Virus record (IMG/VR): IMGVR_UViG_2630968808_000006
DNA: 4,298 bases
Direction: 5' to 3' (one strand)
Source: a virus
Lineage: Duplodnaviria; Heunggongvirae; Uroviricota; Caudoviricetes
In this document: in pieces, positions 1 to 4,298 of the stretch
How positions within the stretch are numbered: position 1 is the stretch's first letter
Layout: each line of letters opens with the position of its first letter
The notes under the pieces: model-generated
Databases searched by the model: none
The model's input: only the letters and a program-made list of their open reading frames with translations
Told to the model about the DNA's origin: nothing
Translations under genes and position numbers: made by a program

Positions 1-615
1 GTGAGCGAAATTAATTACCAGGCACTGCGTGAAAAGGCAGAAAAAGCAACGAGTGGTGTGTGGTCGCTCGAATATGGAGATGGCCGATTTGATGGTGATG
101 ATGCACTAATTCATCGCGAGGCTGCTGGATATATTCCCATTTGCAGAATTGAAGGAGCGCATCCTGAAAGCGGTTTCGATGAAGATTTCCAAATAGAACA
201 GCAGGCCAATGCTGAATTCATCGCCGCAGCCAATCCGGCTACCGTGCTGGCACTACTGGATGAACGGGAAAGAAACCAGCAATACATCAAACGCCGCGAC
301 CAGGAGAACGAGGATATTGCGCTAACGGTAGGGAAGCTGCGTGTTGAGCTGGAAGCAGCAGAGAACAACCTTATTGATAGTGAATGCCATGTTGCTGAAC
401 TGGAAGAAGCGCTACGCGATAAGCAGGCGTTACTTGAAGCCTCAGAAAAGCGCATAGCAGAACTGGAAGCGCGGGAAATACTGCTCCCGGAACGTAGCAG
501 CATGCTTCATCGAACAGATTTTCACGAGGATTATCAAACGGTAATGGCATACAAAGTTTCTGAAGTCATCGCTGCAATCCGCGCCGCAGGCATTCGCATC
601 AAAGAAGGTGAGTAA
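1..615 (+). CDS. ea22: Ea22-like early-left accessory protein (204 aa) with a central coiled-coil
   Basis: ORF opens with GTG at window position 1 and translates MSEINYQALRE...; central block LLDERERNQQYIKRRDQENEDIALTVGKLRVELE and C-terminal AGIRIK.GE match what I recall of lambda Ea22; heptad-like E/A/L-rich centre; sits upstream of xis/int as in lambdoid phages. Start coincides with the window edge, so the true N-terminus could lie upstream. Confidence 0.8.
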   Translation: MSEINYQALREKAEKATSGVWSLEYGDGRFDGDDALIHREAAGYIPICRIEGAHPESGFDEDFQIEQQANAEFIAAANPATVLALLDERERNQQYIKRRDQENEDIALTVGKLRVELEAAENNLIDSECHVAELEEALRDKQALLEASEKRIAELEAREILLPERSSMLHRTDFHEDYQTVMAYKVSEVIAAIRAAGIRIKEGE

Positions 616-791
616 TGCGTGTGGCATGTATCGGCTTGTTACCGTACCCGACTCGTTTTTGGGCTTCTGCGCTAATTGCAAAGCCACATATCCTGATGGC
701 TGACAACATCATCCCGGCACCAAAGCGCCGCCGTACCGGTATTGCAGCGGCACGACGTGCAGCAAAGAAACGCAGGAGAGCAAAACGATGA
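615..791 (+). CDS. small hypothetical protein (58 aa) with a strongly basic Arg/Lys C-terminal tail
   Basis: Not in the supplied ORF track (below its length cutoff); read by hand: ATG at 615 overlaps the ea22 stop (TAATG) and its TGA stop at 789-791 overlaps the next ATG (ATGA). Translation MRVACIGLLPYPTRFWASALIAKPHILMADNIIPAPKRRRTGIAAARRAAKKRRRAKR. GGTGA Shine-Dalgarno-like motif a few nt upstream. Support is overlap geometry only. Confidence 0.4.
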   Translation: MRVACIGLLPYPTRFWASALIAKPHILMADNIIPAPKRRRTGIAAARRAAKKRRRAKR

Positions 792-979
792 AAAACCGTA
801 AAGCAAAGATGCTTATTTCCCGTATATACAGCCGTTGCTATCCCAGCCAGTGGTTGAGAGTTAGCAATCGCCGTATGGTGTTGTACTTATATTCTGGAAT
901 TGCCAGAGAGGGAATCAAAGATAAGCCCAGCGCAGCGCAAAACCGCTGGAAAAACCACTTGCGCACTAAAGGAGAGTAA
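788..979 (+). CDS. hypothetical basic protein (63 aa)
   Basis: ATG at 788 preceded by AGGAGAG (771-780) with about 9 nt spacing; start overlaps the upstream stop (ATGA); its TAA stop (977-979) is 1 nt from the next start. No recognisable domain. Confidence 0.4.
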   Translation: MKNRKAKMLISRIYSRCYPSQWLRVSNRRMVLYLYSGIAREGIKDKPSAAQNRWKNHLRTKGE

Positions 980-980
980 T

Positions 981-1199
981 GTGCCAACATTATTCAGAAA
1001 AGAATATCCGCGAAGAAGTCGAATAACAGAACTCCTGTTTCTCATTCTGTTTATCGTGTTGATGATACCGATATCCCCGCTAATTTTTGTCTGGGCAATC
1101 GGGAAAATAATTGAGCCAGTTATTGAATTGTATAACGACGTGGTATGGGCGTCGTTCAACACTCTGCACAATAAAATTAATCCATATAAGGAAAACTGA
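981..1199 (+). CDS. small single-pass membrane protein (72 aa from the GTG start)
   Basis: GTG at 981 lies 6 nt after GGAG (971-974), in frame with track ORF 900..1199, whose 5' part overlaps the previous ORF in another frame. Product begins (M)PTLFRKEYPRRSR, followed by one hydrophobic stretch LLFLILFIVLMIPISPLIFVWAIG and a ~30-aa polar tail. By hand count about 38% GC versus about 50% in ea22, with rare codons ATA, AGA and CGA. Confidence 0.5.
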   Translation: MPTLFRKEYPRRSRITELLFLILFIVLMIPISPLIFVWAIGKIIEPVIELYNDVVWASFNTLHNKINPYKEN

Positions 1200-1200
1200 A

Positions 1201-1623
1201 ATGACCACCATTACCAGAGAAAGCGCGGAGATTAAATCATTCATCACTGGCTTCCTGAGCGACCCGGCGCACGATAACCAATCATCAAACAGTCTGTTTG
1301 CTGATGTGTTTCGTATCGCGCTGGCCTCGCTGGAAGCAGAACCAGTTGCATGGACTGATGACGAGGAACTGCGAGATGTTGAGCAAATTGGTTTAGGTTA
1401 TTTATTACCTTGTCCTCCAGATAAATACGCAGACCCGCGTCGTGTAATTCCGCTGTATCGTGTGCCGCCAGCTCCCATAGTGCAGGCACAGGGAATTGAG
1501 ATCGCAATAAACGAACTGGTGTCTCTGTCCCCACAGCTGGATAAACGAGCGGTGGAAACTCTTTCTATGGCTGTGGCACATCTACGTAAACTGGTTAAGA
1601 AGCAGTTGCAGGTTAAGGAATGA
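1201..1623 (+). CDS. hypothetical protein (140 aa); N-terminal domain paralogous to that of the next ORF
   Basis: ATG at 1201 preceded by AAGGAA (1188-1193) with 7 nt spacing and placed 1 nt after the upstream stop; the track's longer form from 1111 would overlap the previous gene and lacks an RBS. Shares RIALASLEAEPVA and VIP(L/V)Y..AP motifs with ORF 1627..2475. Confidence 0.65.
   Translation: MTTITRESAEIKSFITGFLSDPAHDNQSSNSLFADVFRIALASLEAEPVAWTDDEELRDVEQIGLGYLLPCPPDKYADPRRVIPLYRVPPAPIVQAQGIEIAINELVSLSPQLDKRAVETLSMAVAHLRKLVKKQLQVKE
1312..1353 (+). repeat. copy 1 of a 42-nt in-frame direct repeat encoding RIALASLEAEPVAW
   Basis: CGTATCGCGCTGGCCTCGCTGGAAGCAGAACCAGTTGCATGG; about 33/42 nt identical to 1717..1758, with most differences at codon third positions. 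Confidence 0.7.
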
Positions 1624-1626
1624 CAC

Positions 1627-2475
1627 ATGAACGCTATCACCAAAGAACGTATTGAATTGTTCATTAAAAATCCGCTTGATAACGGGCTTACCCGTGGCGA
1701 ACAAATGGAACTGGCACGAATTGCACTGGCATCACTGGAAGCAGAGCCAGTTGCTTATATTTTCAAACATCCGGCCGGAAAATTATTCTGGGCTTTGACG
1801 GATGAAAGCAATAAAGATCAATCGGACGTTATTCCTGTTTATGCTGCCGCGCCTGCGTCGGTTGTGCCGGATAATGCATCAGAGCCTCTTGCTTATGCTT
1901 ACAAAGAGCTTACGCCTGAGATTATGCGCAACCATTTAGCTGTATTCGAGCGATATGGAATAGCACCAAACGATAGCTCTACCACAATTCAGGCACTGCG
2001 AATCGCGCTGGATGGCATAGAGCGGAGCGACGCCATGCTTCATGGTGCCGAAACTGTAAGCCAAACTTACAAGTTGCCAGTTAATACACCTTGCCAAGAT
2101 GCGCCAGCCCATATCTGGCTGCAAACGGCTGGAGTATGGCCAGAAGATGGCGAGTTAAGCGAATTAACGTGGTGCAGCCACAATCAGCACCATGATGACA
2201 CGCTATATGTTCGAGCTGACCTTGTGAATGGCAACTCTCCGGTAACTACGGATGGTTGGATAAGCTGTAGTGAGAGAATGCCTGAAAAGAACCAGAACGT
2301 GCTTATTTCGGTGAATTTCGATAGTGATCTGGTTGAGCCGCTAATATGCTCCGCACGCTATACCGGAAGTACATTCCGGCGTGGAGGTGTAACGGTTATG
2401 CCAGGTAATGGTATTGAGCAAGCAACTCACTGGATGCCGCTACCGGAACCGCCGCAGGAGGTAAACCGTGGCTAA
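1627..2475 (+). CDS. prophage protein (282 aa) with a DUF551-like C-terminal domain (Eaa-type)
   Basis: ATG at 1627 preceded by AAGGAA (1615-1620). C-terminus DGWISCSERMPEKNQNVLISV...ATHWMPLPEPP resembles the W...P...THWMPLPEPP signature I associate with DUF551 enterobacterial prophage proteins (recalled, not searched). N-terminal domain is paralogous to ORF 1201..1623. Confidence 0.75.
   Translation: MNAITKERIELFIKNPLDNGLTRGEQMELARIALASLEAEPVAYIFKHPAGKLFWALTDESNKDQSDVIPVYAAAPASVVPDNASEPLAYAYKELTPEIMRNHLAVFERYGIAPNDSSTTIQALRIALDGIERSDAMLHGAETVSQTYKLPVNTPCQDAPAHIWLQTAGVWPEDGELSELTWCSHNQHHDDTLYVRADLVNGNSPVTTDGWISCSERMPEKNQNVLISVNFDSDLVEPLICSARYTGSTFRRGGVTVMPGNGIEQATHWMPLPEPPQEVNRG
1717..1758 (+). 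repeat. copy 2 of the 42-nt in-frame direct repeat encoding RIALASLEAEPVAY
   Basis: CGAATTGCACTGGCATCACTGGAAGCAGAGCCAGTTGCTTAT, 405 nt downstream of copy 1; a partial third copy CGAATCGCGCTGG at 1999-2011 encodes RIALDGIE within the same gene. Confidence 0.7.
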
Positions 2476-2752
2476 CCTGCAACTTGCTGTCAAAGGTGAA
2501 TACTTCGATGCCATGATTCGCGGGGAGAAAACGGAAGAGTATCGCCTGTGTAATGACTACTGGAAAAAGCGCCTCGTTAACCGTAAGTATGACCGCCTGA
2601 TTATCACAAAGGGATATCCGAAGCGCGACGATTCCAGCCGTAGAATTGATGTTCCGTATGACGGATATGAAATCAAGACAATCACACATCCGCACTTCGG
2701 CGATAAACCGGTAAAGGTGTTCGCGATAAAGGTGAATATCAGCAATGAATAA
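2468..2752 (+). CDS. 94-aa ASCH/PUA-like (DUF3850-like) small protein in the slot lambda uses for ea8.5
   Basis: GTG at 2468 preceded by AGGAGG (2456-2461) with 6 nt spacing; overlaps the upstream stop by 8 nt (GTGGCTAA). N-terminus LQLAVKGEYFDAMIRGEKTEEYR fits the ASCH-type pattern (L.L....YF.A...G.KT.E.R). Only one Cys, so probably not the zinc-binding lambda Ea8.5 fold. Confidence 0.65.
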   Translation: MANLQLAVKGEYFDAMIRGEKTEEYRLCNDYWKKRLVNRKYDRLIITKGYPKRDDSSRRIDVPYDGYEIKTITHPHFGDKPVKVFAIKVNISNE

Positions 2753-2785
2753 CAATCCTCGCACTCGCGGGGATTTCTTTTATCT

Positions 2786-2812
2786 GAACTCGCTACGGCG
2801 GGTTTTGTTTTA
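2786..2812 (+). terminator. weak hairpin plus U-rich tract after the 94-aa ORF (possible attenuator)
   Basis: CTCGC (2789-2793), loop TACG, GCGGG (2798-2802) with one G-U pair, followed by TTTTGTTTTAT. Short stem, interrupted T-run. Confidence 0.2.
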
Positions 2813-2824
2813 TGGAGATGATAA

Positions 2825-2992
2825 ATGCACTTCCGAGTCACAGGTGAATGGAATGGAGAGCCATTCAACAGAGTTATCGAAGCAGAGGACATCAACGACT
2901 GCTATAACCACTGGATGATATGGGCGCAGATAGCGCATGCAGACGTAACCAATATTCGAATTGAAGAACTGAAAGAACACCAAGCCGCCTGA
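2825..2992 (+). CDS. 55-aa hypothetical protein, positional equivalent of the small ORF between ea8.5 and xis in lambda
   Basis: Not in the ORF track (below its length cutoff); read by hand: ATG at 2825 is 7 nt after GGAG (2814-2817); translation MHFRVTGEWNGEPFNRVIEAEDINDCYNHWMIWAQIAHADVTNIRIEELKEHQAA; TGA stop (2990-2992) lies in the loop of the terminator hairpin. Distance to xis and int matches my recollection of the lambda map. Confidence 0.55.
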   Translation: MHFRVTGEWNGEPFNRVIEAEDINDCYNHWMIWAQIAHADVTNIRIEELKEHQAA

Positions 2993-3004
2993 TGGCGGTT
3001 TTTT
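2982..3004 (+). terminator. Rho-independent terminator (GC stem, UGAU loop, T6 tail)
   Basis: GCCGCC (2984-2989), loop TGAT (2990-2993), GGCGG (2994-2998) giving 5 G-C pairs plus flanking G-U and A-U pairs, followed by six T (2999-3004). On the minus strand the stem is followed by non-T sequence, so it is + strand specific. Confidence 0.6.
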
Positions 3005-3005
3005 C

Positions 3006-3045
3006 TTGCGTGTAATTGCGGAGACTTTGCGATGTACTTAACACT
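3006..3045 (+). promoter_or_regulatory. cII-activated pI-type promoter: TTGC-N6-TTGC box flanking the -35, with the -10 and start point inside the first codons of xis
   Basis: TTGC (3006-3009), GTGTAA, TTGC (3016-3019) is the tetranucleotide direct repeat recognised by lambda CII at pRE, pI and paQ; it lies about 13-26 nt upstream of the xis ATG (3032), matching the lambda pI arrangement. The -10 hexamer is not unambiguous (candidates TGTACT or TACTTA around 3033-3040). Confidence 0.6.
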
Positions 3046-3250
3046 TCAGGAGTGGAACGCACGCCAGCGGCGCCCAAGAAGCCTTGAAACAGTTCGTCGA
3101 TGGGTACGCGAGTGCAGGATATTCCCTCCTCCGGTTAAGGATGGAAGAGAGTATCTGTTCCACGAATCAGCGGTAAAGGTTGACTTAAATCGACCAGTAA
3201 CAGGTAGCCTTTTGAAGAGGATCAGAAATGGGAAGAAGGCGAAGTCATGA
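3032..3250 (+). CDS. xis: excisionase Xis (72 aa), lambda type
   Basis: ATG at 3032 is 8 nt after GGAG (3020-3023); product MYLTLQEWNARQRRPRSLETVRRWVRECRIFPPPVKDGREYLFHESAVKVDLNRPVTGSLLKRIRNGKKAKS matches lambda Xis as I recall it; overlaps int by 23 nt as in lambda. Confidence 0.95.
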   Translation: MYLTLQEWNARQRRPRSLETVRRWVRECRIFPPPVKDGREYLFHESAVKVDLNRPVTGSLLKRIRNGKKAKS

Positions 3251-4298
3251 GCGCCGGGATTTACCCCCTAACCTTTATATAAGAAACAATGGATATTACT
3301 GCTACAGGGACCCAAGGACGGGTAAAGAGTTTGGATTAGGCCGAGACAGGCGAATCGCAATCACTGAAGCTATACAGGCCAACATTGAGTTATTTTCAGG
3401 ACACAAACACAAGCCTCTGACAGCGAGAATCAACAGTGATAATTCTGTTACGTTACATTCATGGCTTGATCGCTACGAAAAAATCCTCGCCAGCAGAGGA
3501 ATCAAGCAGAAGACACTCATAAATTACATGAGCAAAATTAAAGCAATAAGGAGGGGTCTGCCTGATGCTCCACTTGAAGACATCACCACAAAAGAAATTG
3601 CGGCAATGCTCAATGGATACATAGACGAGGGCAAGGCGGCGTCAGCCAAGTTAATCAGATCAACACTGAGCGATGCATTCCGAGAGGCAATAGCTGAAGG
3701 CCATATAACAACAAACCCGGTCGCTGCCACTCGCGCAGCAAAATCAGAGGTAAGGAGATCAAGACTTACGGCTGACGAATACCTGAAAATTTATCAAGCA
3801 GCAGAATCATCACCATGTTGGCTTAGACTTGCAATGGAACTGGCTGTTGTTACCGGGCAGCGAGTTGGTGATTTATGCGAAATGAAGTGGTCTGATATCA
3901 TAGATGGCTATCTTTATGTCGAGCAAAGCAAAACCGGCGTAAAAATTGCCATCCCAACAACATTGCATGTTGATGCTCTTGGGATATCAATGAAGGAAAC
4001 ACTTGATAAATGCAAAGAGATTCTTGGCGGAGAAACCATAATTGCATCTACTCGTCGTGAACCGCTTTCATCCGGCACAGTATCAAGGTATTTTATGCGC
4101 GCACGAAAAGCATCAGGTCTTTCCTTCGAAGGGGATCCGCCTACCTTTCACGAGTTGCGCAGTTTGTCTGCAAGACTCTATGAGAAGCAGATAAGCGATA
4201 AGTTTGCTCAACATCTTCTCGGGCATAAGTCGGACACCATGGCATCACAGTATCGTGATGACAGAGGCAGGGAGTGGGACAAAATTGAAATCAAATAA
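3228..4298 (+). CDS. int: tyrosine site-specific integrase Int (356 aa), lambda type
   Basis: N-terminal arm-binding region MGRRRSHERRDLPPNLYIRNNGYYCYRDPRTGKEFGLG; catalytic residues at lambda Int positions: R in VTGQRVGDL (R212), H308-x-x-R311 in TFHELRSL, H333 and Y342 in LLGHKSDTMASQY (positions counted from the translation). GAGG RBS 7 nt upstream. Complete ORF ending TAA at 4296-4298. Confidence 0.97.
   Translation: MGRRRSHERRDLPPNLYIRNNGYYCYRDPRTGKEFGLGRDRRIAITEAIQANIELFSGHKHKPLTARINSDNSVTLHSWLDRYEKILASRGIKQKTLINYMSKIKAIRRGLPDAPLEDITTKEIAAMLNGYIDEGKAASAKLIRSTLSDAFREAIAEGHITTNPVAATRAAKSEVRRSRLTADEYLKIYQAAESSPCWLRLAMELAVVTGQRVGDLCEMKWSDIIDGYLYVEQSKTGVKIAIPTTLHVDALGISMKETLDKCKEILGGETIIASTRREPLSSGTVSRYFMRARKASGLSFEGDPPTFHELRSLSARLYEKQISDKFAQHLLGHKSDTMASQYRDDRGREWDKIEIK

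Follow-up and report, generated by a model that had tools for sequence, protein, structure and literature searches.

The window analysed here (a whole stretch of 4,298 nucleotides of Caudoviricetes DNA) carries, between an ea22-like gene and the xis and int genes, a block of independently shuffled accessory genes and not a conserved multi-gene system. This block is the documented variable segment that lies downstream of ea22 in the exo-xis (early-left, pL) region of lambdoid phages. Positions 613-2748 are probably best viewed as the variable, non-essential tail of this region, i.e. the distal part of the pL operon, in which separately acquired accessory genes have been joined at gene boundaries by recombination instead of co-evolving as a system. 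The features of the window are the following.

1..615, plus strand: ea22-like gene (PF13935 Ead_Ea22, 121.6 bits), encoding an acidic protein of 204 aa
615..791, plus strand: orf58, ultra-basic 58-aa microprotein (phrog_13831)
788..979, plus strand: orf63, basic 63-aa protein
981..1199, plus strand: orf72, DUF4014 small membrane protein (PF13198, phrog_1832)
1201..1623, plus strand: orf140, N-terminal module paralogous to the start of orf282, then a rarer C-terminal part
1627..2475, plus strand: orf282, modular DUF551 protein (PF04448)
2468..2752, plus strand: orf94, ASCH-like (phrog_625)
2749..4298, plus strand: lambda-identical right flank, with terminator-like hairpins, orf55, xis and int
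2825-2992, plus strand: orf55
3032-3250, plus strand: xis (Pfam Exc)
3228-4298, plus strand: int (Pfam Phage_integrase, Arm-DNA-bind_1)
2754-2775, 2786-2805 and 2982-3001: terminator-like hairpins

A sequence-only reading of this DNA had described orf58 to orf282 as five tightly packed ORFs of the same strand, and all the junctions that it gave are confirmed. The ea22-like gene and orf58 meet in TAATG and orf58 and orf63 in ATGA, whereas gaps of 1, 1 and 3 nt separate orf63 from orf72 (whose start is the GTG at 981, not 980), orf72 from orf140 and orf140 from orf282; orf94, starting with the GTG at 2468, overlaps orf282 by 8 nt. No sigma-70-like promoter was found inside the block. The only terminator-like site of the plus strand within it is a weak 5-bp stem (1734-1751), and an Rfam scan of the window with E values up to 1 returned no RNA family. 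The GC content of the individual genes ranges from 0.38 to 0.54. As for the proposed translational coupling, the overlaps permit it, but it has to be inferred and every gene start of the block is preceded, about 8-17 nt upstream, by a Shine-Dalgarno-like motif. By analogy with lambda, transcription of the genes would take place soon after infection or induction, within the long N-antiterminated pL transcript that runs toward xis and int. Translation would start at a separate ribosome-binding site for each gene, with perhaps some additional coupling through the overlapping stops and starts.

The source contigs carry, on one strand, cI, N, RecT, ..., ea22, the block, xis, int and ybhC. Prophages integrated at the lambda attachment site fill the ea22-to-xis slot with quite different gene sets, which bears out the earlier placement of the block in an accessory-gene hotspot of the early-left operon. 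Other cargo of this slot includes a dATP/dGTP pyrophosphohydrolase with DUF4752, HNH with eaa, or ea8.5 in lambda. The location between ea22 and xis/int, the strand, the varied content, the conserved flanks and the joints at gene boundaries are all those of the lambdoid exo-xis variable region. The right boundary of the block had been put at 2475; alignment to lambda moves it to 2748. Homology to lambda is lost after 612 and restored from 2749 on. The 2.14 kb in between (613-2748) comprise six genes, one of them orf94, in place of the 485 bp with ea8.5 that lambda has there. On the left, the conserved exo-xis block ends with the ea22-like gene, which anchors the variable segment on its upstream side; this gene aligns to lambda ea22 only at 1-49, 244-360 and 585-612. 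On the right, the flank is 98.1% identical to lambda over 1550 bp. The sixth gene, orf94, matches phrog_625 (E 7e-51) and has close homologues that PGAP names 'ASCH domain-containing protein', while its own match to ASCH (PF04266) covers only the first 24 model positions and, with 14.6 bits, lies below the cut-off of 21.2.

The five genes do not travel together, and the idea that they form one cassette encoding an undescribed system is not borne out. Among about 218 IMG/VR locus records whose flanks are adequate, not one has the full set; these loci are the best 80 per seed, partly redundant and in some cases cut by contig ends, and the well-flanked records seeded on the five genes number 61, 21, 52, 55 and 38, some of them from the same contigs. 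No stretch covering at least 80% of the block is present in 50,697 phage records or in 5426 complete E. coli genomes; some part of it is matched in 2496 of the latter. The exact five-gene arrangement was found only on about 20 E. coli draft-genome contigs that carry the identical orf282 protein. Among the loci, presence and absence of the genes follow many patterns and adjacency is mostly below 15% (5/61 for orf63-orf72, 6/52 for orf72-orf140 and 0-1 for orf140-orf282). Prevalence is just as uneven: at a coverage of at least 80%, the 5426 complete E. coli genomes include 281 with orf58 and orf63, 826 with orf72, 4 with orf140 and 1 with orf282. The end-points of blastn matches over 372 loci cluster around 580-610, 780-800 and 980, which are gene junctions. 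The DUF4014-orf140 pair is also found in a replication/nin-type region, and in a prophage of ST131 type a homologue of orf282 (95.8% identical) directly follows ea22.

At the level of families, the order ea22, orf58, orf63, DUF4014, DUF551 protein and ASCH-like protein recurs loosely in Stx phages of the 933W type and in P1-like phage-plasmids, and some degree of selection may act on it. This recurrence, the tight or overlapping junctions devoid of any internal promoter-like site and the placement of the block in an accessory-gene hotspot would all be expected if the five genes formed a single, translationally coupled system that functions only as a whole, in defence, anti-defence or host take-over. 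Such a system is nevertheless very improbable given the lack of a single well-flanked locus record with all five genes, the more than 100-fold differences in prevalence and the occurrence of each gene with other neighbours, even in another operon. Furthermore, the segment swapped relative to lambda comprises six genes and not five, PADLOC-DB yielded no family for the eight proteins searched with E values up to 0.1, and close packing is the rule across the whole operon, xis and int themselves overlapping by 23 nt.

All five ORFs are real genes: they are intact in many relatives, tolerate in-frame indels and show dN/dS values of 0.2-0.55 in the called frame (orf58 0.40, orf63 0.55, orf72 0.20 and orf140 0.30; the value for orf94 is 0.16). 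Ratios are distinctly higher in the remaining frames (about 0.45 to 2.4), except in the antisense frame that shares wobble positions. The sequence-only reading had made the status of orf58 and orf63 depend on their conservation as intact ORFs across relatives, and both are so conserved. An intact orf58 of 51-60 aa, with indels that keep the frame and with either ATG or GTG as start, is present in 162 loci representing 54 sequence variants. That orf58, orf63 or both might be chance ORFs within a conserved non-coding spacer, or a recombination linker, separating ea22 from the next real gene could be argued from their very small size, from the frequency with which annotators skip them (the 933W record; PGAP in L001), from the homology end-points that coincide with their borders and from the ratio of the orf58 antisense frame sharing wobble positions, which is similar to that of the called frame (0.43 vs 0.40). 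This antisense frame is, however, closed by stops beyond 712, and the orf58 frame survives indels of -7, -2, -1 and +2 codons as well as ATG/GTG changes among the 54 variants. At the ends of orf63, synonymous divergence reaches 0.22-0.32 whereas non-synonymous divergence is only 0.04-0.08. Both ORFs also have good Shine-Dalgarno motifs and match PHROG families end to end, which leaves the chance-ORF explanation the least probable of all those considered here.

The two microproteins are as basic as had been claimed. The orf58 product has a net charge of +15 and a pI of 12.0 (16 K+R in 58 aa); its N-terminal half is hydrophobic and its C-terminal tail (PAPKRRRTGIAAARRAAKKRRRAKR) is rich in arginine and alanine. 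This product matches phrog_13831 with an E value of 5.8e-40. The orf63 product has a net charge of +13 and a pI of 11.1, and conserved ends (MKNRKAK... and ...SAAQNRWKNHLRTKGE) enclose a variable centre. Both families are confined to enterobacterial phages and phage-plasmids. A profile search with the orf63 family against 1.84 billion representatives retrieved only 45 small proteins; its few long matches are frameshift fusions or repeats, in which no informative Pfam domain was found. Three other interpretations were rejected: a toxin-antitoxin pair (both proteins are strongly basic, with no acidic partner between them), a lipoprotein signal in orf58 (the Cys at position 5 is too near the N-terminus) and an internal start at Met28 of orf58 (a variant with a 7-codon deletion and divergent variants devoid of Met28 keep the full frame).

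Within the block, ea22-orf58-orf63 is the sole recurrent trio: in well-flanked loci seeded on orf58, orf63 is present in 47/47 and ea22 in 40/47. This trio, at least, could be a functional unit. Peptides with an arginine-rich motif, of which lambda N is the type, bind their cognate RNA hairpin through a short arginine-rich helix. By composition, the tail of orf58 resembles such RNA-binding peptides, a likeness that we take as a lead only. For orf58 and orf63, which travel with ea22, the probable ligand is a nucleic acid or an acidic partner. A rather unlikely reading goes further: either ea22, orf58 and orf63 would constitute a three-part module in which the microproteins regulate the lysis-lysogeny decision early, in a way not yet described, together with the acidic Ea22 or by acting on RNA/DNA, or a single gene (DUF4014 or the DUF551 protein) would encode a new stand-alone exclusion or counter-defence factor.

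The five products belong to families that are catalogued but uncharacterised (DUF4014, DUF551, PHROGs). The orf72 protein matches DUF4014 (PF13198) over model positions 2-72 of 72 with 90.7 bits (cut-off 23.2) and phrog_1832 with an E value of 9.3e-45. After a basic N-terminus come a hydrophobic segment (about 27 residues) and a C-terminal part (about 30 residues). Its Kyte-Doolittle maximum, averaged over 19 residues, is 2.96 at residue 19, and this strong segment together with the DUF4014 match agrees with its earlier description as a membrane protein; it is predicted to be inserted in the inner membrane. No paper was found on DUF4014, nor on the PHROG wording 'released from the phage upon host infection'.

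The orf282 protein carries, as had been suggested, a DUF551 domain (PF04448, 78.7 bits for a cut-off of 22, residues 210-277, full model 1-68), preceded by a variable middle and by an N-terminal module shared with orf140. The two proteins are 32% identical over about 100 aa (E 2e-7), and a 38-nt repeat (1312-1349 in orf140, 1717-1754 in orf282) is 84% identical. In relatives (P0318-P0320), DUF551 replaces the C-terminal part of orf140, and in another locus (L377) orf140 lies in a different operon, adjoining replication genes and hokD. The two proteins are partial paralogues and would join a common N-terminal module to exchangeable C-terminal domains with a binding role, which in orf282 is DUF551. 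Neither protein is matched by PF13935, the model for the Ead_Ea22 N-terminal part and coiled coil, and both share with Ea22-containing proteins only the composite profile phrog_60. The more than 8000 relatives of orf282 are all named only 'DUF551 domain-containing protein'. An AlphaFold2 model of orf282 built from a 66-sequence alignment has a mean pLDDT of 47, only the beta-rich DUF551 part (five strands) being confident (pLDDT about 70-84). Its comparison to the PDB by Foldseek gave no match with E <0.1; the top matches, chymotrypsin-fold proteases, had a probability <0.3 and were treated as noise. Structure modelling as a whole gave no useful clue. PDB sequence searches with orf282, orf140 and orf63 gave nothing below an E value of about 0.1, and an NCBIfam scan of all block proteins gave no match. 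Thus, HMM, PDB-sequence and fold searches support the earlier statement that no product has an assignable function. The DUF551 literature gives no biochemical function for this domain and, to our knowledge, no biochemical activity is known for it in any protein.

One or more of these genes might encode stand-alone factors of counter-defence or superinfection exclusion, with early expression from pL, as for the anti-RecBCD and Ral-type genes nearby, and with a turnover that would reflect an arms race; orf72 would for example be an exclusion factor and DUF551 proteins would inhibit host immunity. Their early operon, their high turnover, the many alternative alleles found in one slot, the variable centre of orf63 and the presence of a 'phage anti-RecBCD protein' upstream in relatives are consistent with such roles. 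A dATP/dGTP pyrophosphohydrolase, described as an inhibitor of host restriction enzymes, likewise contains DUF551 (PMC10834534), and in one locus (L375) the slot is taken by a pyrophosphohydrolase gene. Conversely, the libraries searched revealed no homology to characterised anti-defence proteins, and there is no sign of diversifying selection, since dN/dS stays below 1 throughout, even in the centre of orf63 (0.56). Moreover, the characterised genes of the region act on the lysis-lysogeny decision rather than on defence (PMC8614690). Counter-defence thus appears doubtful, while being a more serious candidate than the other alternatives.

Separate non-essential early genes, co-transcribed from pL, acting on host or phage regulation and ordinary for the region, are the most likely content of the block. 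As a best guess, each product would act alone or within small sub-modules, as do the characterised neighbours Ea22, Ea8.5 and Orf60a/61/63, and, by binding macromolecules of the host or the phage, would adjust either host physiology or the choice between lysis and lysogeny. The block itself provides neither a new kind of system nor a sharp testable mechanism. Its main value is to give a further example of mosaicism at gene boundaries and to point to two small basic proteins that annotators often miss. Its families are very common, including in Shiga-toxin phages such as 933W and in P1-like phage-plasmids. The exo-xis region influences prophage induction and hence toxin release; a function for any of the block genes would therefore be useful.

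Compared to lambda, the slot, strand and operon are the same, the 3' end of ea22 is shared on the left and identity is 98% from 2749 through orf55, xis and int, but ea8.5 is absent and six unrelated genes stand in its place. The lambda exo-xis genes are non-essential and early, and their role is largely unknown (PMC8614690). The Stx phage 933W (L0064-L0068) and the equivalent region of phage 24B display the same family order after ea22, with 933W homologues of orf58 (81%), orf63 (62%), DUF4014 (L0067, 92%) and orf94 (L0064, 91%). The 'EaA-like' DUF551 protein of 933W (L0065) is 60% identical to orf282 over the C-terminal half but has another N-terminal part. Phage 933W also differs by an additional small ORF after its orf63 homologue, by a different gene (L0066) at the place of orf140 and by its xis and int.

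The DUF551 domain of orf282 is common to EaA-like proteins of P22, to the Ea22 variant V2 of Stx phages and to YfdS of E. coli CPS-53, but orf282 lacks the Ead/Ea22 N-terminal coiled-coil signature. In prophage proteins, this domain has been described as portable and C-terminal (PMC10834534, PMC4776307); it is found in Ea22 variant V2, in YfdS and in a pyrophosphohydrolase fusion (PMC10834534). [quoted passage not shown] The 'ea' genes of P22-type phages likewise form a long run of small early-left genes from the recombination genes to xis/int, mostly without known function (PMC8022706). In the P22-like phage vB_EcoP-720R6, the part comprising Ea22, DUF551, orf94, orf55, xis and int is common at 97% whereas orf58, orf63, orf72 and orf140 are missing; the gene sets vary from one phage to the next.

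An identical orf282 protein occurs on about 20 E. coli draft-genome contigs, whose gene order is O, cII and cro (on the opposite strand), followed by cI, N, RecT, DUF2737, ea22, the block (the five genes at 615–2475), xis, int and ybhC of the host. The source element is a lambdoid prophage integrated at lambda's attachment site, with the block in the distal part of its early-left operon. The genes of the window are as follows.

Genes of the window
1–615, + strand, ea22-like gene (Pfam Ead_Ea22)
615–791, + strand, orf58 (phrog_13831)
788–979, + strand, orf63 (phrog_1380)
981–1199, + strand, orf72, GTG start (Pfam DUF4014, phrog_1832)
1201–1623, + strand, orf140 (phrog_660 and phrog_60)
1627–2475, + strand, orf282 (Pfam DUF551, residues 210–277)
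2468–2752, + strand, orf94, GTG start (ASCH-like, phrog_625)
2825–2992, + strand, orf55
3032–3250, + strand, xis
3228–4298, + strand, int

The region 2749–4298 (orf55, xis and int) aligns with lambda at 98% identity, and on the left side only short stretches of ea22 align, the last one being 585–612. Since lambda homology ends at 612 and resumes at 2749, the differing segment is 613–2748; it contains six genes over 2.14 kb, against 485 bp carrying ea8.5 in lambda. The right-hand boundary at 2475 proposed by the sequence-only reading must be moved, as it leaves off orf94 and lambda homology is back only at 2749. This sixth gene (2468–2752) is part of the segment that takes the place of lambda ea8.5; it scores under the threshold for Pfam ASCH, yet PGAP calls its homologues ASCH. 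The ea22-like gene (1–615) is itself mosaic: only 1–49, 244–360 and 585–612 align to lambda ea22, in line with published work describing a common N-terminus and coiled coil combined with C-terminal domains that can be exchanged.

The junctions are those read from the sequence alone (TAATG, ATGA, 1-, 1- and 3-nt gaps and a final 8-nt overlap); the gap preceding orf72 is indeed 1 nt, but the gene starts at 981 and not at 980. As each gene of the window set has its own Shine-Dalgarno-like motif ahead of the start codon, the overlaps allow the translational coupling that had been proposed but do not make expression dependent on it. A consensus scan found no sigma-70-like promoter in the block, no sign of an own promoter was seen for these early-left genes, and the sole + strand terminator-like site within the block is a weak 5-bp stem (1734–1751). 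Clearer + strand hairpins lie downstream (2754–2775, 2786–2805 and 2982–3001). These three terminator-like hairpins (2754–2805, 2982–3001) flank orf55 and lie within the region of 98% identity to lambda; against shuffled controls, the 291-nt stretch shows somewhat better folding (z = -1.97).

The sequence-only reading had made the reality of orf58 and orf63 depend on their conservation as intact ORFs, and such conservation was found. Among the loci fetched, 162 have an intact orf58 frame of 51–60 codons, in 54 different sequences; every indel is in frame and the start is ATG or GTG. The pooled Nei-Gojobori dN/dS of relatives versus the window sequence is 0.40 for orf58, 0.55 for orf63, 0.20 for orf72, 0.30 for orf140, 0.16 for orf94 and 0.24 for orf55. 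Alternative frames give clearly higher values (about 0.45 to 2.4). The exception is the antisense frame with shared wobble positions; in the case of orf58 it is closed by stops past 712. Along orf63, dN/dS is 0.10 at one end, 0.56 in the centre and 0.31 at the other end; synonymous divergence is 0.22–0.46 across the whole length, indicating that conservation acts at the protein level, and the central value looks, from these sequence comparisons, more like relaxed constraint than positive selection. Taken together, the small ORFs are real genes. In the alignment of the orf63 family (A2, window 788–979), the ends MKNRKAK and SAAQNRWKNH are nearly invariant and the centre falls to about 50% identity. 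Many gene callers lengthen orf63 to 82–90 aa at the expense of orf58.

At least 80% of the window, or of 560–2520, was found in one place in none of 50,697 phage records and none of 5426 complete E. coli genomes. Among IMG/VR loci (up to 80 best for each of five seed proteins, all genes placed by tblastn), the five genes never occur together in the 61, 21, 52, 55 and 38 well-flanked records, some of which come from the same contigs. In these records orf58 is often directly followed by orf63, as it is in the window (29/55); the corresponding counts are 5/61 for orf63-orf72, 6/52 for orf72-orf140, 0–1 for orf140-orf282 and 4/38 for orf282-orf94, with many different presence/absence patterns. Prevalence in complete E. 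coli genomes (at least 80% coverage) is also uneven: 281 for orf58 plus orf63, 826 for orf72, 4 for orf140 and 1 for orf282. In another prophage (NZ_CP200002.1, locus L377, 2281–3052), an orf140 of 100% identity is found in a replication/nin-type region, preceded by DUF4014 and followed by a DUF551 gene fragment, with DUF4752-family genes on one side and hokD on the other, so this DUF4014-orf140 sub-module is not tied to the early-left operon; a 95.8%-identical orf282 directly follows ea22 in yet another prophage. Furthermore, blastn end-points pile up at gene junctions and per-gene GC content ranges from 0.38 to 0.54. The block is not one cassette: its genes assort independently and have been joined by recombination at their boundaries. 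Only the ea22-orf58-orf63 trio is robustly linked (orf63 in 47/47 well-flanked orf58 loci, ea22 in 40/47). The five-gene "undescribed system" is thus not borne out, given the lack of any record with all five, the uneven prevalence and the other neighbours and operon, and we regard a single five-gene system as very improbable. The proposal of a hotspot for accessory genes is supported, as this is a known variable slot with lambda flanks kept around different content.

All five proteins belong to catalogued families without known function (phrog_13831, phrog_1380, DUF4014/phrog_1832, phrog_660 plus phrog_60, and DUF551); family searches matched only uncharacterised families, in agreement with the earlier failure to assign functions, and NCBIfam, PADLOC and PDB sequence searches gave no matches. 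The orf58 and orf63 products are ultra-basic (net +15 and +13); orf63 belongs to a tiny enterobacterial family, with 86 clusters at 90% identity and, in a set of 1.84 billion proteins, 45 representatives, and the orf63 model (pLDDT 72, alpha-beta3-alpha) found no structural neighbour in PDB. The orf72 product has a basic N-terminus, then a single long hydrophobic segment. The orf140 and orf282 products are paralogous across their first ~100 residues (32% identity, E 2e-7), and a 38-nt direct repeat (1312–1349 / 1717–1754) encodes RIALASLEAEPVA, common to both. This motif and EP(V/L)AY, both encoded by short direct repeats, are shared by the two proteins and repeated inside orf282, which also contains the repeat 1742–1767 / 1880–1905. 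Extra motif copies may be present in longer relatives of about 420 aa, and the short repeats may be recombination points for domain shuffling. Relatives of the orf140 N-terminus carry DUF551 in place of its C-terminal part, which makes these modular proteins whose C-terminal domains can be exchanged. In the AlphaFold2 model of orf282, only the DUF551 domain, a small five-stranded unit, is predicted with confidence.

The following picture is, in our opinion, probable. The independently assorting accessory genes would be read early from pL under N antitermination, and each product would bind macromolecules of the host or the phage, either alone or in a sub-module (ea22-orf58-orf63 and DUF4014-orf140 are examples). 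For the basic microproteins the targets would be nucleic acid or acidic partners, the site of action of orf72 would be the membrane, and the DUF551 and orf140 proteins would serve as adaptors; any single biochemical role is much less sure than the overall picture. That at least one gene is a stand-alone counter-defence or exclusion factor is a live but rather unlikely alternative. Overall, this is an ordinary block for a lambdoid prophage, and the trio is a modest residual lead.

A looser family order (ea22, orf58, orf63, DUF4014, DUF551 protein, ASCH-like) recurs in the Stx phage 933W (L0064–L0068) and in P1-like phage-plasmids; this is the usual lambdoid pattern, in which order is kept with exchangeable alleles. 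The orf58 and orf63 homologues lack annotation in the 933W GenBank record (locus L002, 2536–2873), and PGAP also skips the orf58 homologue of comparison locus L001 (3555–3728). One P1-like phage-plasmid (NZ_JBWKMP010000003.1, 4056–5980) carries orf58, an orf63-like gene, DUF4014 and DUF551; such phage-plasmids are about 92 kb long and have these modules close to hot, humD and phd/doc. The stretch 615–979 matches complete E. coli genomes at 773 places, and 324 of these are on plasmids. [quoted passage not shown] DUF551 has been described as a portable domain that occurs in Ea22 variant V2, in a pyrophosphohydrolase fusion and in the YfdS protein of prophage CPS-53 (PMC10834534); yfdS deletion was reported to cause H2O2 sensitivity, and suppression of replication over-initiation requires yfdQR together with either yfdS or yfdT (PMC4776307). 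With its families catalogued and its variable region documented, the block brings known but uncharacterised modules together in a new combination, within a variable slot that is itself known.
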